Shown here one piece after another: positions 13,785 through 36,695 of a stretch of DNA of 36,695 bases. Below the pieces are notes generated by a model. That model did no database searches, was not told where the DNA came from, and was given only the letters and a program-made list of their open reading frames with translations. The stretch spans positions 1-36,695 of IMG/VR virus record IMGVR_UViG_2531839665_000016; one strand, 5' to 3'. Origin of the DNA: a virus (Duplodnaviria; Heunggongvirae; Uroviricota; Caudoviricetes). Within the stretch, counting starts at the first letter, position 1. The number at the start of each line of letters is the position of its first letter. Position numbers and translations under genes: made by a program.

Positions 13785-14967
13785 CGGAGGGTTTCGTGGT
13801 CATGTTCATCGGTGTGAGATAGACATCACCACCGGGACGCGGATTCATATCTTCCAGATCGCGGCAGTCATTGGGAGAGTAAATTCCCCAGTTGATCCCG
13901 GTGGCGTAGGCTTCAAAACGGGACTTCATATCCCCGCGCAGTAACGCCCCGGCGTTAAATTTGGCGTAATAAACGCCCTGCTTACTTTTTCGTACCAGTC
14001 CGGTGTTGATCCGCTGTTCGATGCGGGTCAGATACGGCACCAGTGAATAGTTGATAAATCCCAGCCCCAGCTCTTCGATATTGTTGAAGGTGGCGCGATC
14101 GGTGTTCTGCACCATGTGCAACGGCACCCGGAACAGACGACAGATTTCTTCAAGCTGAAACTTGCGGGTTTCCAGGAACTGGCTGTCCTCGGCGTTCAGC
14201 GCCATCGACTTCCAGTCCAGCCCCATCTCAAGGATCATCGGGCGGTGAGCATTACCAAGCCCGGTGTGACGCTCCTCAAAATCTTTCTTCAGGCGCTCAT
14301 AAGCCTGATCCGACAGCGTCTGTTCTGTACGCAACACACCCGACGTCACCGCGCCATTGCTGAACAGTCTGGCCCCGTGCTCTTCGGTCGCAGCTGCCAG
14401 CGATATTGCCTCGCGGGCATAGGCGATGGGATTCAGTCCCACCAGACCGTCCAGCGTCAGCGTGCGCACATGCCAGATATCTTCCTGGCTCAGTACATCC
14501 GTGGAGCCGTCCGGGAATGTGACCTGGTAAACCGGTTCCCAGCTACTGTTAAGCTTCGGTACCACACAACCGGGATCGACGGGCAGCAGTTCAGCCACTT
14601 CGCCAAACGCTTTCACTTTGTAGGCGTAAAAGTTTCCCCGCAGGCACAGACAGGTGACCACCAGCTCCCAGAACTCCTGCGGCGTCATATAGCCATTGGG
14701 ATGCGTGGAGATCAGCTTATGCAGACGTTCGCCAGTGGCTCTCTGCTTCAGGCTGCCGTTCAGGTGATACAGGTTGCAGGGCAACATCCCGACCGACTCC
14801 GCCAGCACCCTGACGCAGGAAAAAACCGCCGTCAGTCGCATGGCCCTCTGGCTGCTGATCTGCTTTCCGGTATAGGTGTCGTATGACAGCCCGATAGCAT
14901 CCGCCAGCTCTGCTGGCGTGGTCACCGGTGCGTCACTTTTTCGTTGAAATAATCCCGAAAAGAACAC
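13726..14967 (-). CDS. Portal protein, HK97 family
   Basis: 413 aa; portal-like N-terminal motif (MRLTAVFSCVRVLAESV); downstream of terminase. Confidence 0.85.
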   Translation of the reverse strand: MFFSGLFQRKSDAPVTTPAELADAIGLSYDTYTGKQISSQRAMRLTAVFSCVRVLAESVGMLPCNLYHLNGSLKQRATGERLHKLISTHPNGYMTPQEFWELVVTCLCLRGNFYAYKVKAFGEVAELLPVDPGCVVPKLNSSWEPVYQVTFPDGSTDVLSQEDIWHVRTLTLDGLVGLNPIAYAREAISLAAATEEHGARLFSNGAVTSGVLRTEQTLSDQAYERLKKDFEERHTGLGNAHRPMILEMGLDWKSMALNAEDSQFLETRKFQLEEICRLFRVPLHMVQNTDRATFNNIEELGLGFINYSLVPYLTRIEQRINTGLVRKSKQGVYYAKFNAGALLRGDMKSRFEAYATGINWGIYSPNDCRDLEDMNPRPGGDVYLTPMNMTTKPSDGSKAGKQKDNANADETTS

Positions 14968-15149
14968 TATTTACCTCCACCAACAGACATCTGTGTACGG
15001 TCGAGATATCGCGCCACCAGCCACGACCAGAACAGGCACAACGCCCCGGCAACAACAAACCCCGCAGGGGGATAAATCAGCCAGGCCCCATACGCCAGCA
15101 AAAGCCCCCCCAGCACGCCCACCAGAGGCGCGAGAATCAGCATGATCAT
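14967..15149 (-). CDS. Small hydrophobic protein between terminase and portal
   Basis: 60 aa with two predicted hydrophobic helices; ATGA overlap with the portal start. Confidence 0.4.
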
Positions 15150-15160
15150 AATTACCTCAG

Positions 15161-16894
15161 TTAAAGCGAGCGGATCCCGTAGGACTCAATGTGATCAGAC
15201 AGCGTGTCTTCTTTCTCGTACAGCATGGCTCTGCCAACCGCCATAATCAGCGCAACTGCACCGTCAATTTTGTTTTCCGCCTGCTCTTTGACGGGTTTCA
15301 CCACATCATCGTTACCCGGCATGTTTTTGCCGACCACGTTGCCGATACACCAGGTCATGATGGGATTGCCGTCATGATGAAAACGTCCCGATTCAATCGC
15401 TGCTTCCAGCTCTTTCATCGGATCGGACATATTGGTGAAGTTCTGGAAGATAGTGACGGGATTCAGGTCTTCATCAGCAAGGTCATGTGACAGCCCGGTC
15501 GCCCCGAAGGGGTCGATGGGTGACTCGCTGACCGGGCTGATTTTGTTCGCCGCTTTGGCCTCTTCGAGGATGTAGCGATAATCCACCTCTGCACCATCGG
15601 TAACGGTCAGGACGCCCATTTCCACCCATTTCTGAAAGCGTTCGGCTGTCCGGCGATCTTCATTTTTCTCGACGCTGTACACCGTGTCATACGGTACCCA
15701 GAAACGCGGGGCCACACTGTAGTAATGCGTTTTACCGTCAATCTCGCGGGTATAAAGTCGCGCCATGCTGTTCATATCCAGTTTACGCGCCAGGTCAAAG
15801 GCCAGAATGCACGGCTGCCCCTCGAATTGCTCAAGAGTCAGTGATTTATCCTCGCAGCTCTGCCAGCTCACCAGGTTGAAATACGCCGAACGCGCCGACA
15901 CCCAGATATTGAGGTGTTTTGTTTTAAAGACGTTTGCCAGACGGGCGTTATTTTTCGCACGCTGTTGCTGACTTAACAAAAACTCACGGTAAACCGACAC
16001 CCCGATATTCTGGTTAGCTTTTTCCAGCACCTGTGGGTTGGTCCAGTCGTCACCTTCGTCAACGGTATAGATGATCCCGAACAGTTCATCGTTGGGTACC
16101 GAACCGTTGAGCATCTCGATAACTTCCCGCCGTTTGTCGTAGCACGGCCCCTCAATGTTGTACCCGGCAGTAGTAATGGCCCACATCAGTGGCTGACGTC
16201 GCGCCCCCATCCCGGTAAGCATTGTGGTATAAAGCGCATCGGTGGCATGCTCGTGATATTCATCAACCACGGCACAGTGGGGTGATGAACCATCACCTGG
16301 GTTGCCGATCAGCGGTTCAAACCGCGCGCCATCCTCCGGACGGTTCATGTTTGAGGCGTTAACCTCAATCCCGAACGCTTCCGTCAGCATGGGTGTGCGT
16401 TTACACATCAGTCGTGCCGGGCGAAAGACTTCCCACGCCTGTTTCTCTGTCGTGGCACCGGAATACACTTCCGCGCCAAACTCGTTATCACAGGCAAAAC
16501 AATACAGGGCAACACCGGCAGAGATTGCTGATTTGCCGTTCTTACGGGGGATTTCGGTGTACACCTCCCGGAAGCGGCGCAACCGGGTGCCTTTATTGAC
16601 CCAGCCAAACGCACAGCAGATCACAAATAGCTGCCACGGCTCCAGCGTGATGGGCATCCGTTTGAATGCCCACTCCCCCTTGGTGTGCGGCAACAGCTGA
16701 ATAAATTTGGCGGCCCGTTCAGCCAGATCCTTGTCGAAGCGGTAACGAAACGACTTACTTTTTTCCGCCATCAGGTCATCAAGATGGCGCTGGCAGGCCT
16801 GAATCACAAACTGGCAGGCCACAATCTTTCCGCGCACGACATCCCGGGCATACTGATTGGCAGCATTTACGTTGGGGTAAGATTTCCGGCTCAT
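15161..16894 (-). CDS. Terminase large subunit
   Basis: 577 aa; ATPase and nuclease-like regions; follows the small subunit with a 4 nt overlap. Confidence 0.85.
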
Positions 16895-20266: not shown

Positions 20267-21442
20267 ATGGATATAACTTGTTTAGAATGTGGCAATGTTC
20301 TTGACGACCCAACTGTAGCTTGCGATAAATGCGGTGCCACGCCTCATGTTGTAGTGCTGGGCAAACAATCGTACTTTCCTATTGGTGCTGTAACAGCAAA
20401 TCTTGAAAAAAATGATTCAAGAGCATTTGATTATCGATTAGGTGAAGTTTGGGATCTAAAAAATGAAGTCACATCTGAATTCATAACCAGAATTGAGAAA
20501 AAATTTAGCCGAAAAAACAAATTTCATAACTTCCTAGACTCAGATCACAACCCTTCATCCATTCCTACGATCCTAAAAAAATACATTAATAAAAATAATG
20601 AATTCATTGATTTATCTAGAGCTATAATAGAGAAGCTTAAACATAATGCTAATAACGAATCGAGAGTTGCCCAACTTCAGGGGGGGAGCGTTGTTTTCAT
20701 CCACTATAAGTCTACCGAACCAGAGGATTTGGGGAAACTTCTAATCGTAATGGTTGATAAACAAAGCGCCTATGACTTTGATTCGGATAAGTTGACCCCA
20801 ACAAGATTAAATCCAATTAATACCGATGCCTTACGGCAGGCTGCGATGTTCGATTTAACTTTATTCGAAGCCAGTTATCCAGAAAACAAGGGTGACTCAT
20901 ATGTACATTTCTTGCAAGGTAAATCTAAAAGCGATTTTTTCAAAGACTCATTAGGTTGCCGACATGATTCGGACAATAAAAGAAGCATTCAGCAATTATT
21001 CAGTGCTATAGATATTTTTGCTAGTAAAAACTCACTCGGTCGTGTACTGCGTGATACTATTGACAATGAAGTTAAATCCTTACTGGAAAAAAAATCAAAA
21101 GATAAACACGGAAATAAGTCCGTTAAGATAGAGGATATTTCAAAAATAATTGACTCATGCCTGACTGATTCACACAAATGTAAGGGAACGTTTGTCGATT
21201 TTGTTAATCTTAATGGTTTCCAGATTGACCCTCAATTTGAACCAACTCCTAAAGCAGCTGAAAGCGCGCTTACAATTGAAGTGGCAGATAACGACAATAA
21301 TTTTAAGTTGAAAATAATGCGTGGAGCTATTGGAGACGAAAAGTCAAATAAGCCTGTAATTCTCACTGACAATAAATGCGAAATTGTGATAAAATTGAGT
21401 CAGGCAAATTATGATGAACTCAAAAGATATAGAGACAGCTAA
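20267..21442 (+). CDS. Zinc-ribbon + YejK/NdpA (NA37)-like nucleoid-associated-protein-family protein; accessory (moron) gene A
   Basis: 391 aa. N-terminal CxxC...CxxC (CLECG...CDKCG). Central region GGSVVFIHY...LIVMV...YVHFLQGKSKSDFFKDSLGC matches my memory of the YejK pattern GGIVLFCHY...YLTFLKG...FFMDFLGA. Lys/Asn-rich, AT-rich coding sequence. Stop overlaps the start of gene B (TAATAATG). Confidence 0.6.
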   Translation: MDITCLECGNVLDDPTVACDKCGATPHVVVLGKQSYFPIGAVTANLEKNDSRAFDYRLGEVWDLKNEVTSEFITRIEKKFSRKNKFHNFLDSDHNPSSIPTILKKYINKNNEFIDLSRAIIEKLKHNANNESRVAQLQGGSVVFIHYKSTEPEDLGKLLIVMVDKQSAYDFDSDKLTPTRLNPINTDALRQAAMFDLTLFEASYPENKGDSYVHFLQGKSKSDFFKDSLGCRHDSDNKRSIQQLFSAIDIFASKNSLGRVLRDTIDNEVKSLLEKKSKDKHGNKSVKIEDISKIIDSCLTDSHKCKGTFVDFVNLNGFQIDPQFEPTPKAAESALTIEVADNDNNFKLKIMRGAIGDEKSNKPVILTDNKCEIVIKLSQANYDELKRYRDS

Positions 21443-21444
21443 TA

Positions 21445-22659
21445 ATGACAATTGCTGATGACTTATCAAGATTAGCGCAGATTATTAACGGAGCCTCAAG
21501 CAGAGTTGAGGGCTACTACACTGTCATAAGTCTTGAAGAAAGCATTGTTATTGTAAATAGTTCTGAAATAATTAGACTGTTACAATCTATAGGTTATAAA
21601 AAGGCAACAACCTGCATCGAAAATAATGAAATTTGGCTAGATCGCCAAGCTTCATCTTGGGATGATGCTATAATTTATGAGAATGTTGAGTCTTTTTGGT
21701 CTAGAGTAAACACCCAAAACGCTCTTCCGAAAAATTATATCATCGGAACGCCGTTAATACTCCCTACTTCTAAGAATGAAAGCATCGAAAAAATCCATAT
21801 TTTCTTTATGTGGAAAGATATCCTTTCATTAATTTCTGATCATCATAACAGTGACTGCTCTGTCTTATTTTTCACCAATGAAGACAAAAGTTATACAGTC
21901 GAACTCACGCATTTTTTACAATATAGCGAGATTAATCGCTTATCGAACTCGTCTCTTAAATATGAAATTATAAAGGAGCTTCTCGACACAATAAAAATCA
22001 ATGATTTACACAAAAGCGAGCGCAAGCTCGTTATACGCTCAGCCATAAACGAAGTATTTAAAGCAAATGGTACGTTCAATTTCTTTGACTTGCTTAACTC
22101 TACTGAACTCGTCAGGAAAAAATATGATGAACTATATGAGATTTACACAAAGAGGTTTTCTGTAAATAAAATTCTTAACGAACTCGATGAGAAAAATCTT
22201 GAGTTCACGAGTAAAATTAACGAATTCATATCATCTAATCAGACAAAAGCATTGACTATTCCCGGTGCATTAATAGCAGCTGGTGGCTTAGTGAAGGCTA
22301 ATGAAACAACCGAAGCAATATTGATTATCGCAGGACTTTGGATGATAAAAAAAGTCAATTACATTTCTATTGAGATATTCAATGAAACATTCGACAACTT
22401 ACGTTCTCGAGTGGAGTCCGCTTTCGATAAGTATTTAAAGTTTGAAGAAAATAAAGAAATCAAAGATAATGCAGATAGTATTAAGAGTAGCATTACAGGT
22501 TTGATTGATAAAGCTAAAAAAAGGATGAGAACTGTTAAATATCTCGCATCAGCCATGTTTTATGGAGGCCTTATTTACGTTGGATATAAACAGTTCCCAG
22601 TCTTTTTTGAAAAATCGGCAGTAAATCTATTTTATTTTTTATGCCATACTATAAGCTAA
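21445..22659 (+). CDS. Hypothetical protein with C-terminal hydrophobic helices; accessory (moron) gene B, putative effector
   Basis: 404 aa, no family recognised. Hydrophobic segments ALTIPGALIAAGGLV...AILIIAGLWMI and YLASAMFYGGLIYVGY near the C-terminus. Translationally coupled to gene A. 3' end overlaps the Q stop convergently by 21 nt. Confidence 0.55.
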   Translation: MTIADDLSRLAQIINGASSRVEGYYTVISLEESIVIVNSSEIIRLLQSIGYKKATTCIENNEIWLDRQASSWDDAIIYENVESFWSRVNTQNALPKNYIIGTPLILPTSKNESIEKIHIFFMWKDILSLISDHHNSDCSVLFFTNEDKSYTVELTHFLQYSEINRLSNSSLKYEIIKELLDTIKINDLHKSERKLVIRSAINEVFKANGTFNFFDLLNSTELVRKKYDELYEIYTKRFSVNKILNELDEKNLEFTSKINEFISSNQTKALTIPGALIAAGGLVKANETTEAILIIAGLWMIKKVNYISIEIFNETFDNLRSRVESAFDKYLKFEENKEIKDNADSIKSSITGLIDKAKKRMRTVKYLASAMFYGGLIYVGYKQFPVFFEKSAVNLFYFLCHTIS

Positions 22660-31819: not shown

Positions 31820-31947
31820 TTTGATTACTGCAAATGCCCCTGCGGGGGCATTTATGGAAACGTAATTAACTCAATAATCGCCGGATGGTGAGGGCTTCCT
31901 TTTACCAGAATTCAGTGCGGTGCAGCGCAAATAACGTGGAGAACAAA

Positions 31948-32524: not shown

Positions 32525-32785
32525 ATGAGGTTATCAAAAATGCTTCAAATGCTGACACTTGAAGAATGGGCTTCTGAAAAATACAGAAGTAATCCTCCAA
32601 GTGTGTCCACATTGCGTCGTTATGCTAAGCAGAATTTATTTTGTCCACCGGCCATGAAACAAGGCCGGTTATGGCGAGTGCGTGAGGACGCCGAGTTAGT
32701 TGGAGAGCTGGTAACACCAGTAATTAAGAAAAATGACTCATTACTTTTGCAACGGATTTTGAGTGATGGCAGCCAGACCGCGTAA
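32525..32785 (+). CDS. xis: Excisionase (Xis)
   Basis: 86 aa; MLTLEEWA...KQGRLWRV excisionase-like motif; overlaps the int start. Alternative start at 32540. Confidence 0.65.
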   Translation: MRLSKMLQMLTLEEWASEKYRSNPPSVSTLRRYAKQNLFCPPAMKQGRLWRVREDAELVGELVTPVIKKNDSLLLQRILSDGSQTA

Positions 32786-33893
32786 AAATAATGTTTCGGT
32801 CCCTAACTTATATCCGCTTTATAGTAGGAAAGTAAATAAAGTCTATTGGCGGTATAAGCATCCAGTAACAGGGAAATTTCATGCGCTAGGAACGAACGAA
32901 ACCGAAGCCATCGCTATTGCCACTGAAGCCAATACGCGACTGGCTGAACAAAGAACTCGGCAGATTCTGGCCATCAGTGACAGGATAGCAACCAGCAAAG
33001 GGAAAGCAATCACAACGTCAACCTGGTTAGATCGCTACCAAGCGATCCAGGATGACCGACTGAAAAGTGGTGATATAAGACTCAACACTTATAAGCAGAA
33101 AGCCAAACCAGTATCCTTACTTAGGGAACGAGTAGGAATGAAGTTGATCTCAGCCGTTGATGTCAGAGATATAGCACAATTGCTTGACGAGTATATCGCT
33201 GCCGGGCAGCCGAGAATGGCGCAAGTCGTAAGGTCTGTATTGATCGATGTATTTAAGGAAGCACAGCATTATGGCGAAGTTCCGCCAGGGTATAACCCTG
33301 CTCTTGCGACGAAGCAACCCAGACGGAAAATCACCCGTCAACGCCTCAGCCTCGAAGAATGGAAAAAAATCTTCGATATCGCAGATGCCAGTCATCGTTA
33401 CATGGGAAATGCCATGCTCCTAGCATTGGTCACTGGACAGCGTTTGGGGGACATATCTAAAATGAAATTCAGCGATATTTGGGATGACCATCTACATGTC
33501 GAACAGGAAAAGACTGGAAGCAAAATCGCAATTCCTCTTTCTCTTCGCCTCAATACGATTAACTGGAGTTTACGCGATATAATAGCCCGCTGCCGTGACT
33601 ATGCAGTCAGTCCATACCTAGTGCATTTTTTCCGTTCAACTTCACAAGCAGAACGTGGGGCACAGGTTAAATCCAATACATTGACGATGAACTTTAGCAA
33701 AGCGCGAGACTTGGCCGGAATTGATTGGGGTGATGGAACTCCAGCAACTTTCCATGAACAAAGATCTTTATCTGAGCGCCTTTATAGGGAACAAGGGATT
33801 GATACGCAAAAACTACTCGGACATAAATCTCCTAATCAGACAGCTAGATATCATGATGATCGTGGAAAAGATTGGGTAACTCTAGCAATTTGA
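32763..33893 (+). CDS. int: Tyrosine integrase, lambda Int family
   Basis: 376 aa; C-terminal LLGHKSPNQTARYHDDRG resembles the lambda Int catalytic Tyr region (GHKSDTMASQYRDDRG). Confidence 0.85.
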   Translation: MMAARPRKNNVSVPNLYPLYSRKVNKVYWRYKHPVTGKFHALGTNETEAIAIATEANTRLAEQRTRQILAISDRIATSKGKAITTSTWLDRYQAIQDDRLKSGDIRLNTYKQKAKPVSLLRERVGMKLISAVDVRDIAQLLDEYIAAGQPRMAQVVRSVLIDVFKEAQHYGEVPPGYNPALATKQPRRKITRQRLSLEEWKKIFDIADASHRYMGNAMLLALVTGQRLGDISKMKFSDIWDDHLHVEQEKTGSKIAIPLSLRLNTINWSLRDIIARCRDYAVSPYLVHFFRSTSQAERGAQVKSNTLTMNFSKARDLAGIDWGDGTPATFHEQRSLSERLYREQGIDTQKLLGHKSPNQTARYHDDRGKDWVTLAI

Positions 33894-33978: not shown

Positions 33979-33995
33979 GGGGGGAGGAGCCCCCC
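33979..33995. other. GC-clamp hairpin (GGGGGG-AGGAG-CCCCCC) in the AT-rich int-distal segment; sib-like retroregulatory hairpin or att-proximal element
   Basis: Read directly from the sequence; the surrounding 33894-34027 is strongly AT-rich, as expected for att arms. Confidence 0.3.
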
Positions 33996-34027: not shown

Positions 34028-34993
34028 TCATTTCTTAAATTTAAGAATTTCTTTTAAGGCTTCTACTATATTTTTATCCCCATCCATGCTAATTTTCTCC
34101 TTCTCAAGAGAAACCGTAGTCTGCCCTTTTTCAAGAACAAAATTACGTTCTGTAGCCATGAGATTTTTAATAACCTCACCCATTAAGTCTTCGTTTCTAA
34201 TGCCCTTAAGAAACTTTATCGCCAAAACTTTGGAATCGATATTGGTAAGCTCATTTTGAAAATACTTGACCTCATCAAAACCATTTTTGTACAACTTCAA
34301 GAAGAAATAAGCAAATAGTTCAACGACAATTACAAATGATAATTTGGGGGCCATGTGAAGTATATATTCAAGCTTATCATTTGTGTTAATAGCATTTGTA
34401 ACTGAATATCCAAGGTAAAGTATCCCACAAAAAGCAATAAATGCACCTAAAACCAGATTAACCCCACCACGTCTATTTAATCTATTTATTTCATTTTCTA
34501 AACGATATACAATATCATTATAGTGTTTACTAATTTCTATTTGATTTCTAAACGAATTTATATCATTTTTCAAACTTAAATCTGCAGCCAAGAGAGTATT
34601 GCCTACAATCTTTTTTTTAGCATTATCGATCAACTCTTGCCTTTCTTTTGATGTGAGTAAAACACCATTTAAATCTTTCGAATCATTTGTAACTAGTTGA
34701 TTAAACTCTTGCTTTAAGGAGTCTAATTCTGACTTTAACTCTTCATATGAGTTAACATTCTTGTTTTTACTTTCACCTATTCCTTTATTAACATAATTTA
34801 ATAAAAATGCTGCCATAAAAGTTAAAATCAGAGTTGCAATAAAGAAACTATTTTCATCTTGAAGTATTTTAGCAACAGTGGAAAAATAACTTACGAGAAG
34901 AGGCTGAGCATTATAAAGCCCCATTCCTAACAAAACTGCAATTGCCGTACCTAAAACGAACCTTACTTCTTGTCTTTTTAGTAACCTATTCAT
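34028..34993 (-). CDS. Membrane protein with 4 predicted TM helices (2+2) and central coiled coil; candidate effector
   Basis: 321 aa; hydrophobic helices VRFVLGTAIAVLLGMGLY, FFIATLILTFMAAFLLNYV, VNLVLGAFIAFCGILYLGY, LSFVIVVELFAYFFLKLY; AT-rich. Confidence 0.55.
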   Translation of the reverse strand: MNRLLKRQEVRFVLGTAIAVLLGMGLYNAQPLLVSYFSTVAKILQDENSFFIATLILTFMAAFLLNYVNKGIGESKNKNVNSYEELKSELDSLKQEFNQLVTNDSKDLNGVLLTSKERQELIDNAKKKIVGNTLLAADLSLKNDINSFRNQIEISKHYNDIVYRLENEINRLNRRGGVNLVLGAFIAFCGILYLGYSVTNAINTNDKLEYILHMAPKLSFVIVVELFAYFFLKLYKNGFDEVKYFQNELTNIDSKVLAIKFLKGIRNEDLMGEVIKNLMATERNFVLEKGQTTVSLEKEKISMDGDKNIVEALKEILKFKK

Positions 34994-35555
34994 TATGACA
35001 CCATATGTTATTATTTAACGTTTTATTAAATTCAAAATACTGCCCGAGATTTTAATACTCATAACAAAATAAGAATTAATATACAAAATTTTTCATACTA
35101 CAAGCAAGGCTTTGATAAATTGTTTTGATAACGATTTGATAACCGTTAGAAATCTAATAATAAAAACGGGAGCCATCAGACTTCCGTTTTTGATAACCCG
35201 GAGCCTAGATTTGGCTACCCCAGCAGGAAGATGCAACGTCCACGATTGTCACAAATCAGGCTGGCTCGAGGCAGAATGGCGACTGTGAGGGAGAAACGAA
35301 AGTTCACACTCGTTCTCACTGCTGATGGGGGGTTCACTAACAATCTCAAGCACTAATTAATGGACGAAACTCTACACAAAGCCCCATTTTGTAGGAAAAC
35401 TGGTAACGGATTAGTAATACTACCCGGCCAGAACATGACCGACCGGGTAAAAAAATATCCTGACGCTACTAAGCCTTTAAGATTTGACTAACCTAGTGCT
35501 TACATTATAGAGAACTGCTTATGCCTTCTAAATTATAGAGTAAAAATACTCACCA

Positions 35556-36695
35556 CTAAAATACAACTTGCTTCCTTAGTAAATCACCTCTAGCATTTGA
35601 GTAATATTCAGTCGAATTGCCAGTAACTTCCCGGAGTACTTCTGTTACAAGGTTATTTAGTATTCCCGTAAGTTTAAGAAACTCTCCATATGAATTAGGT
35701 TTCTCAAATATCTTTCTGGTACCGTTCGGCACATCGAGCTGCATTGCAGCATCATGATCCTGGGCTAAGTGATTTAGCCAGCGGTGAGTCTCAACAAGTA
35801 CAGCAAGTTCATAGTATGTACTATGACGGAGATTATTAGCATCTGCATGGTACATTAGTGAAGCAATATCATAGCTGCTTAGATCAATACTCGAACCTTC
35901 GTCTCCACTGTCTGCTTTCAGGGTTTTGAGCATGCGAATTGATTTTCTTAATCCACCATTGCATTGATCGCATTTGTCTTTGATACGTTGCATGTGGAGG
36001 AACGGTTCATTGTAGATACGCTCTCGTTTGTTTTTATCAATTATGGTAACTCCACGATGTTCTTCTTTTTTTGTGAGTTGGTACTCTTTCGTATCCCACC
36101 ATATGCCTGGCACTACATCAACTTCTCTTTGAAGACTCCCCCCCGTTATTCTCAAGGACTTGGCGTTATTATCGTCAACCTGAGCAGCAGGAAATGTCAT
36201 TTTTAGAGCATCTCGAGCTGCACGCCTAAGTTCAATGATGACGTCTCGGCCATCTTTCTCAGCTGCACTATAGCTGCCAACTCCACCGCTATCATACATA
36301 AGCATCTGAGTATCAATAATTAAAAGATCTACATCACTGAAACCTTTGATATGGATATCTAGGGGAACAGAACCTTGTACCCGAAAATCTAGGTTTAGGT
36401 CTAATTTCTTAGTCAGCTGATTTTCAATACGATACGCGGTTTCGAATGAGATCTCTGTATAGCGGGGGTCAACTGGTTGCATCGCACCAATGACATACCG
36501 GATAGCTGAATCGTCTCTTCCTCTAGACTCCCAACTTTCATTAAGCTCAAGAGCATCTTCAAGCAATGCATATTTTTCAAGGCCATCATATCTTTGATTA
36601 CTCATTGATTCTGTGGCTACTCGCAACTGATCATATGTCCCTTTACGACGTGACTTCATGCGTTCAATACGCGAACTATATGATGAATTAGACAT
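35556..36695 (-). CDS. cGAS/DncV-like nucleotidyltransferase (CD-NTase-like); start coincides with window edge
   Basis: 379 aa; pol-beta NTase motifs by my residue count: G108-S109 (QGSVPLD), D121-x-D123 (SDVDLLI), D193 in EVDVVPG (h-D-h-h-P). This spacing matches what I recall for DncV-type cyclases. AT-rich. The ATG is at the last bases of the window, so the N-terminus may be incomplete. Confidence 0.55.
   Translation of the reverse strand: MSNSSYSSRIERMKSRRKGTYDQLRVATESMSNQRYDGLEKYALLEDALELNESWESRGRDDSAIRYVIGAMQPVDPRYTEISFETAYRIENQLTKKLDLNLDFRVQGSVPLDIHIKGFSDVDLLIIDTQMLMYDSGGVGSYSAAEKDGRDVIIELRRAARDALKMTFPAAQVDDNNAKSLRITGGSLQREVDVVPGIWWDTKEYQLTKKEEHRGVTIIDKNKRERIYNEPFLHMQRIKDKCDQCNGGLRKSIRMLKTLKADSGDEGSSIDLSSYDIASLMYHADANNLRHSTYYELAVLVETHRWLNHLAQDHDAAMQLDVPNGTRKIFEKPNSYGEFLKLTGILNNLVTEVLREVTGNSTEYYSNARGDLLRKQVVF

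Follow-up and report, generated by a model that had tools for sequence, protein, structure and literature searches.

The closest described relative of the locus analyzed here is the anti-phage signaling system based on cyclic oligonucleotides (CBASS) of Yersinia aleksiciae, which is composed of the receptor Cap15 and the cyclase CdnE (UniProt P0DXA5; PDB 7N34/7N35; as far as relayed in PMC10419184 from Duncan-Lowey 2021). The β-barrel of Cap15 senses uracil-containing cyclic dinucleotides, whereupon the protein oligomerizes and disrupts the inner membrane, resulting in abortive infection (PMC10419184; PMC10442399). A second system, the type I-B CBASS Ssc-CdnE03 plus Cap15 of Staphylococcus schleiferi (Banh et al. 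2023, PMC10686824), likewise combines a clade-E cyclase with a Cap15 that has two transmembrane (TM) helices: Here, membrane disruption without lysis leads to abortive infection, the trigger is a structured phage RNA termed cabRNA (CBASS-activating bacteriophage RNA), and the product is cyclic GMP-AMP (cGAMP) (PMC10686824). This system is only a distant relative of ours, its gene order and CdnE subcluster may differ, and cabRNA activation and cGAMP synthesis have been shown for that enzyme only. We analyzed a stretch of 36,695 nucleotides of viral DNA (IMG/VR record IMGVR_UViG_2531839665_000016; hereafter the window), at the end of which the minus strand encodes a 379-aa nucleotidyltransferase (NTase) and a 321-aa membrane protein. 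The original prediction had joined the two into a minimal type I CBASS consisting of a cyclase and an effector with four TM helices. The cyclase half of this assignment is correct, whereas the effector is encoded by cap15, a gene that lies beyond the window and overlaps the start of the cyclase gene cdnE. The proposed pair of cyclase and 321-aa protein is an artifact of the window boundary.

Judged by profile and structural comparisons, the 379-aa protein is a full-length clade-E cGAS/DncV-like nucleotidyltransferase (CD-NTase) and a CBASS cyclase, whose capacity for nucleotide synthesis would follow from orthology. All 13 of its 13 PADLOC matches are CBASS 'Cyclase' models, the best of which (PDLC00772; E 6e-137, 454 bits) aligns residues 3-376 with profile positions 2-372 of 375. 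Its closest relatives in the PDB are CdnE enzymes, namely 6WT9 (E 5.7e-31), 6WT8 ('CdnE c-di-GMP synthase') and EfCdnE, and the entries of 6WT9 and 6WT8 describe STING-associated CdnE enzymes. CdnE of Y. aleksiciae, a reviewed Swiss-Prot entry, shares 80% identity over all 379 residues without gaps. The catalytic residues named in the original prediction proved exact: G108-S109, D121-V-D123 and V-D193-V-V-P of the translation align with the GS, DxD and third-aspartate positions of the crystallized CdnE 6WT9, and GS108-109, D121/D123 and D193 are unvaried across 21 homologs. The homologs moreover carry a precomputed match to PF26305 (CD_NTase_C). The N-terminal extension preceding the GS motif, at first regarded as unusual, is normal for the subfamily, because orthologs are 372-383 aa long, the PADLOC profile covers almost the entire chain, and the N-terminal residues R16, R17, E53, W55 and Y67 are unvaried. 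Two codons 5' of the cdnE ATG an in-frame TAG is found; the N-terminus of cdnE is therefore complete, and it is the neighboring cap15 that the window cuts instead.

Extension of the sequence beyond the window, which had been suggested as a check, revealed this neighbor. The 2.8 kb that contain both genes occur as copies of 99.9-100% identity in only 3 of 5,426 complete Escherichia coli genomes, and in these three as well as in one draft genome the order is intE (+), 321-aa gene (-), gap, cdnE (-), 208-aa gene (-), icd (-). In all three complete genomes, the 208-aa gene is located directly upstream of cdnE with an overlap of 8 nt (ATGTCTAA); in locus L001 it spans 14795-15421 and is annotated by RefSeq as 'Cap15 family cyclic dinucleotide receptor'. 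Its product matches the PADLOC CBASS effector model '2TM' (PDLC00686; E 1e-80), aligns through residues 78-207 with the crystal structure of Y. aleksiciae Cap15 (7N34/7N35; E 5e-77), and is 86% identical to the Yersinia protein over its full length. Its hydropathy profile displays a single strongly hydrophobic N-terminal stretch (residues 16-48), and its orthologs carry the Pfam domains Cap15_TM and Cap15_CD_rec. It is cap15, and not the 321-aa gene, that supplies the cyclase operon with an effector bearing a cyclic-nucleotide receptor domain. Neither Cap2/Cap3 (E1/E2/JAB) nor HORMA/TRIP13 genes are present between icd and intE, and no other gene is annotated there. By homology and synteny, cap15-cdnE is a canonical two-gene type I CBASS of an already characterized kind.

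The correspondence with Y. aleksiciae extends to the gene order, the 8-nt overlap, the lengths of 208 and 379 aa, and the location as prophage cargo next to an integrase. The two systems differ in host and carrier, E. coli and an e14-like lambdoid prophage at icd as opposed to an apparent P2/186-like prophage in Yersinia, as well as in the unrelated 321-aa cargo gene that is stacked here between the CBASS and the integrase. The same Cap15-CdnE geometry is found in Yersinia, Serratia, Pantoea, Citrobacter, on an E. coli plasmid and on a metagenome contig: The Yersinia genes adjoin a prophage integrase amid P2/186-type genes (Phage_GPA, Phage_186_Fil), the Serratia genes lie in a chromosomal island, those of Pantoea are next to TraU/TraG-type transfer genes, and those of Citrobacter are part of a phage-like element. 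In a wider survey of 80 loci from 80 further species, which used an alignment as the query against genome contigs (a single cyclase sequence as the query returned nothing), a Cap15 homolog was adjacent to CdnE in 73 loci, immediately upstream on the same strand in 65 and convergent downstream in 7. The convergent arrangement was observed in Acinetobacter and Psychrobacter (L085, L089, L092, L095, L105-L107). Two E. coli plasmids carry cap15-cdnE without the 321-aa gene.

Both genes of the original prediction had been placed just outside the integrase end of the prophage, which is contradicted by the genomic copies. The 3' end of icd is duplicated over 218 nt (92% identity), with one copy at each end of the element (L001 15777-15994 and 3670-3887), and intE and xisE are annotated within it; an integrase and excisionase by icd and a duplicated icd end are the hallmarks of an e14-type prophage. 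Because the duplication flanks the whole element, both genes are located inside an e14-like prophage, between intE and the attachment (att) site at icd. The window and two IMG/VR viral contigs share the exact same final base, which belongs to the cdnE ATG, while the prophage in fact extends ~1.2 kb further, up to the att site at icd. This shared end suggests that the prophage-boundary call stopped ~1.2 kb early; it removed cap15 and invited the false pairing of the cyclase with the 321-aa protein. The AT-richness of both genes was correctly recognized: The GC content is 41% for cdnE (41-43% for the CBASS genes) and 30.5% for the 321-aa gene, compared to ~45-57% for the prophage. The features of the region are as follows, in window coordinates:

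32763-33893, plus strand: intE, an e14-type tyrosine integrase (open reading frame (ORF); annotated as intE in loci L001, L002 and L021), forming the inner border of the int-icd cargo slot.
33979-33995, no strand: candidate hairpin (G6-CTCCT-C6) where intE and the 321-aa gene converge, read from the sequence.
34028-34993, minus strand: 321-aa gene, encoding a putative inner-membrane protein of about four TM helices with a long coiled coil, phrog_5157 (ORF and profile match).
34994-35110, minus strand: leader or 5' region preceding the 321-aa gene; in Enterobacter and Kosakonia, homologous DNA forms the spacer from icd to the 321-aa homolog.
35111-35142, minus strand: three direct TTATCAAA(A) repeats, a diverged second copy of an att-arm-like sequence (alignment).
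35151-35191, minus strand: intrinsic-terminator-like hairpin (35162-35191) followed by a U-run, a relic of the icd-downstream terminator (folding and alignment).
35211-35555, no strand: 345-nt spacer directly 3' of cdnE, with no occurrence found outside this E. coli prophage lineage.
35556-36695, minus strand: cdnE, encoding the 379-aa clade-E CD-NTase (ORF and profiles); the window closes with its ATG codon.
36688-36695, minus strand: last 8 nt of cap15 including its stop codon, overlapping the cdnE start; the remaining 619 nt lie past the window end.

To judge from its distribution across genomes, the 321-aa gene is a separate, solitary prophage cargo gene of the family phrog_5157 and not a component of the CBASS. 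Its product matches the phrog_5157 profile over nearly the full length (E 3.3e-75; residues 46-320 aligned with positions 54-329 of 331) and shares with this uncharacterized family the position at a prophage end close to the integrase ('moron' site); clustered at 90%, the family yields 465 matches, and when the clustering is done at 50% it has 2,796 representatives. No homolog of the 321-aa gene was found within 5-6 kb of CdnE in any of the 80 species loci or in any of 9 closer loci. Conversely, cdnE is missing in 68 of the 71 complete E. coli genomes that contain a family member and in 53 of 55 viral contigs, the 2 exceptions being this same prophage; 28 of the 55 family genes on viral contigs are located within 3 kb of a contig end. 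About 75 phrog_5157 neighborhoods were inspected in total. In Kosakonia, the slot contains a 324-aa homolog between icd and int-xis and nothing more, and in Enterobacter the homolog follows straight after icd. Elsewhere in E. coli, a 45% identical member adjoins a different prophage integrase. Further members reside in an insertion sequence (IS)-bearing island in Alteromonas, beside KwaA-KwaB (Kiwi system) in Vreelandella, and in Vibrio vulnificus within a series of small co-oriented genes, toxin-antitoxin genes among them, that resembles an integron cassette array. Neither a conserved association with CD-NTases nor a similarity to CBASS effectors or sensors was found for the family. The protein has in common with the multi-TM effectors of CBASS (Cap13, Cap14, Cap16, '4TM') that it is a small inner-membrane protein encoded near a CD-NTase; unlike them, it has no PADLOC effector match (E<=1), no SAVED, NUDIX or β-barrel sensor, and no synteny with cyclases elsewhere. 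The extended sequence assigns the two genes to operons that are unrelated, and their reading as one CBASS operon has to be given up.

The large gap between the 321-aa gene and cdnE, correctly noted before as about 560 bp and measuring 562 bp (34994-35555), contains traces of how the two cassettes came together. In 465 E. coli genomes, K-12 among them, the sequence that adjoins the icd stop codon on its 3' side is ~80% identical to approximately 65-80 nt of this gap (window ~35100-35188). A better copy of this att-arm element occupies the usual icd-adjacent place (L001 15726-15788), and the gap copy is 79% identical to it. The alignment delineates a conserved module consisting of the icd stop codon, a terminator hairpin and three TTATCAAA(A) repeats, followed by the cargo; the repeats presumably constitute Int arm-type sites. 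The relic hairpin at 35162-35191 (-13.2 kcal/mol, z -2.3, followed by U5) lines up in every column with the hairpin that is found downstream of icd in L001, K-12, FHI_NMBU_10, Enterobacter and Kosakonia. It was judged by folding because it contains one internal mismatch; a consensus terminator scan found none in the region. On the other side of the relic, the leader of the 321-aa gene is, over 179 nt, 74% identical to the spacer of Enterobacter (L006 5838-5997), and its identity to that of Kosakonia (L012) is 76%. As the same leader follows icd in these two genera, the 321-aa cassette is the older one, upstream of which the CBASS cassette was placed later. The ancestral order would have been icd, terminator-arm module, 321-aa gene and int, and a second unit (terminator-arm module, cap15-cdnE, 345 nt) would now stand between icd and the older module. 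Such an arrangement would result if two e14-type phages that differed in their cargo had undergone tandem lysogeny or recombination and a deletion had then occurred. An icd coding relic in the gap, as predicted by simple tandem integration, was not found; the homology begins at the terminator hairpin, right behind the position expected for the icd stop codon.

Rfam reports a sub-threshold match of the small RNA STnc150 at 35043-35198 (+). In Salmonella, STnc150 lies between icdA and STM1239 on the strand opposite to icdA (PMC2515195), and this icdA-side position fits the gap as an icd-proximal relic. The DNA 3' of icd in L001 (15726-15830), with the terminator and three TTATCAAAA repeats, likewise gives a sub-threshold STnc150 match, and STnc150 itself may be transcribed from a prophage-att-derived remnant.

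The remainder of the gap, the 345-nt spacer, has a GC content of 44% and several hairpins; its folding is no better than that of shuffled sequences on either strand (z -1.6 and -1.3). It has no match in phages, plasmids or Rfam, is not found beside CdnE in six other loci (among them Yersinia, Serratia, Pantoea, Citrobacter and the E. coli plasmid), and in two scans of viral contigs for exact patterns nothing beyond this prophage came up. A promoter-like TTTAGA-17-TATAAT element at 35504-35532 (-) would give rise to a transcript of ~330 nt ending at the relic terminator.

Comparison with other e14-like prophages places both cassettes in a known position. In the e14 prophage of K-12 (icd, ymfD, ymfE, lit, intE), the integrase type, the icd att site and the terminator with its TTATCAAAA repeats are the same, whereas the cargo consists of Lit (PADLOC E 8.5e-124), YmfE and YmfD instead of cap15-cdnE and the 321-aa gene; in our locus the terminator/arm module moreover occurs twice, once by icd and once as the diverged relic in the gap. 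The slot of strain A33 harbors a PtuA-type AAA ATPase (E 2e-239) together with an HNH protein matching PDC-M01B (E 1e-114), a pair (PDC-M01A/B models) that looks Septu-like from these matches. The slot of FHI_NMBU_10 contains an NsnA-like DUF262 protein and an uncharacterized 216-aa protein. In e14-like prophages, the intE-icd slot accommodates variable defense cargo and is able to stack cassettes, and the duplication of the att-arm/terminator module hints at a modular build-up of the defense cargo. As a side observation, a 287-aa protein is encoded convergently to the 321-aa homolog in Enterobacter sichuanensis (L006 7654-8517, -). Over its first 150 residues it matches TIR effector models of CBASS/Pycsar (E 1e-39), no cyclase is nearby, and it may be an orphan TIR effector or part of an unrecognized system.

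We are highly confident that the locus represents the cargo slot of an e14-like prophage with two independent cassettes arranged head to tail, cap15-cdnE next to icd and the 321-aa gene next to intE. For cap15-cdnE, product, trigger and defense phenotype can be inferred from the Yersinia system: CdnE would be inactive until phage infection, upon which its pol-β active site with the GS, DxD and third-aspartate motifs would synthesize a cyclic dinucleotide. The C-terminal β-barrel of Cap15 would bind this cyclic dinucleotide, and Cap15, anchored by two N-terminal TM helices, would oligomerize and disrupt the inner membrane. The infected cell would consequently die before phage release. The 321-aa gene, provided with its own leader and located behind the relic terminator and the att-arm repeats, would act outside the CBASS. 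The solitary and mobile occurrence of its family in hotspots favors an accessory function that it would exert alone; its most likely role would be a membrane-acting, stand-alone protection of the lysogen against other phages, by superinfection exclusion or by abortive membrane permeabilization, a tentative proposal to which we give somewhat less than an even chance.

Several points weigh against this picture of two independent cassettes. Nucleotide product and trigger are carried over from relatives of at most 80% identity, and for the E. coli allele both expression and activity would have to be as in its orthologs. The 321-aa protein matches no PADLOC model, its AlphaFold2 (AF2) model is of only moderate quality (predicted local distance difference test, pLDDT, 69.6), and its protective role is presumed from genomic context. 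The 345-nt segment at 35211-35555 is not accounted for by the picture. A consensus scan detected no promoter directly before the 321-aa gene; as the nearest same-strand site (35504-35532) is upstream of the relic terminator, some co-transcription by read-through is possible. Finally, all three E. coli genomes with cdnE at icd also carry the 321-aa gene, yet they represent one near-identical locus (at least 99.9% identity), and we consequently regard the co-occurrence as a single evolutionary event.

The last two points would also suit a three-gene variant of the system, in which the 321-aa protein serves cap15-cdnE as an accessory, be it a second effector, a sensor, or an immunity or regulatory partner that modulates Cap15. 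The three genes are indeed adjacent and co-oriented in every genome with the chromosomal locus. We nevertheless consider such a variant very improbable: Apart from the single event behind the co-occurrence, both partners are widespread in neighborhoods that are otherwise mutually exclusive, the 321-aa gene keeps the same leader directly after icd in Kosakonia and Enterobacter, and the GC contents of the cassettes differ.

A different role for the 321-aa protein is suggested by its architecture. TM segments exceed the Kyte-Doolittle threshold at residues 47-69, 176-199 and 214-236, and a weaker one is discernible at ~13-32, so that the originally proposed 2+2 arrangement of hydrophobic helices is plausible with three strong segments and one weaker one. 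The N-terminus and the loop 67-178 carry positive charges, which would place the coiled-coil loop of ~110 residues and the tail of ~85 residues in the cytoplasm. The AF2 model is all-helical, and its helices 115-199 and 207-262 form a hairpin that includes TM3 and TM4. The unvaried core of the family consists of R164, E168, R175-G176, N179, P216, E225 (in TM4) and the motifs AYFFL-LY, QNE-TN and TERNF. The 2+2 topology with a long cytoplasmic loop resembles MotA, and E225 lies within TM4; one homolog has been automatically named 'MotA/TolQ/ExbB proton channel domain-containing protein' (UniRef), and Foldseek yields weak matches to TolQ/ExbB/PomA (probability 0.8-0.9, TM-score 0.25-0.39). The protein might accordingly be a proton-channel stator subunit of the MotA/TolQ/ExbB type in an ion-driven motor. 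This is very unlikely, as hhalign gives a probability of only 0.1% against E. coli TolQ and MotA, the Foldseek matches are non-significant, and no MotB/TolR/ExbD partner gene is present in the loci of Enterobacter, other E. coli, Kosakonia, Alteromonas, Vibrio or Vreelandella. The 321-aa protein and 20 family members have no relative in Pfam, NCBIfam or the PDB, no PADLOC model matches at E<=1, and Foldseek with the AF2 model found no significant fold match; the initial statement that the protein has no recognizable nucleotide-sensing domain holds. A literature search with phrog_5157 and the RefSeq accessions gave nothing.

The pairing originally proposed, in which NTase and 321-aa protein form a minimal type I CBASS and a cyclic nucleotide activates the latter, is exceedingly unlikely, even though both genes are AT-rich, lie 562 bp apart on the same strand and occur together in all three complete E. 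coli genomes with chromosomal cdnE, and operons with TM effectors are common in CBASS (PMC10419184): A genuine Cap15 effector gene already overlaps the opposite end of the cyclase gene, relatives of the 321-aa protein are absent from the surveyed CdnE loci (0/80 and 0/9), the family is predominantly cyclase-free in E. coli genomes (68/71) and viral contigs (53/55) as well as in Kosakonia, Enterobacter, Vibrio and Alteromonas, neither a PADLOC effector model nor a nucleotide-sensing domain matches the protein, and the terminator/att-arm relic separates the genes. A local Pfam copy gave no match for the NTase and the NCBIfam matches stay below their cut-offs, which would suit a non-signaling enzyme, be it a toxin of the MNT/AbiEii type or an NTase acting on antibiotics. 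This reading is practically untenable: Even these NCBIfam models are CBASS cyclases or an anti-phage NTase, all PADLOC matches are CBASS cyclase models with a best score of 454 bits over the full length, the PDB relatives are CdnE enzymes, PF26305 is present in the homologs, identity to a reviewed CdnE reaches 80%, and a Cap15 receptor gene adjoins the cyclase.

Two further observations concern the prophage outside the intE-icd slot. In strain JB2, an IS1 element is inserted between the yfdQ-like and HD-hydrolase genes (L002 9287-9984) of a prophage that is otherwise 99.9% identical; the insertion point corresponds to window ~31933-31941, where the window has no IS1. At 20267-22659 (+), an AT-rich cassette of two genes (34-38% GC) separates the lysis genes from the Q antiterminator. 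One of its products is a 391-aa nucleoid-associated protein resembling NA37/YejK (Pfam PF04245, E 1e-23), the other a 404-aa protein without a match in Pfam or PADLOC. The cassette is also present in strain ARS-C301 and looks like a further accessory cassette.

The CBASS part of the locus adds little to what is known, as it is an ortholog of the structurally and functionally characterized Cap15-CdnE system and is recognized both by PADLOC and by RefSeq naming. The locus illustrates how a boundary call that is short by ~1.2 kb hides a real effector. The only open lead is phrog_5157, a large unannotated membrane family that is found repeatedly alone in such slots. As a mobile cassette in int-att slots, in the apparent Vibrio array and in defense islands, it may constitute a new single-gene anti-phage or superinfection-exclusion system; we would sooner expect that it does not, but it is a reasonable candidate for experimental screening.

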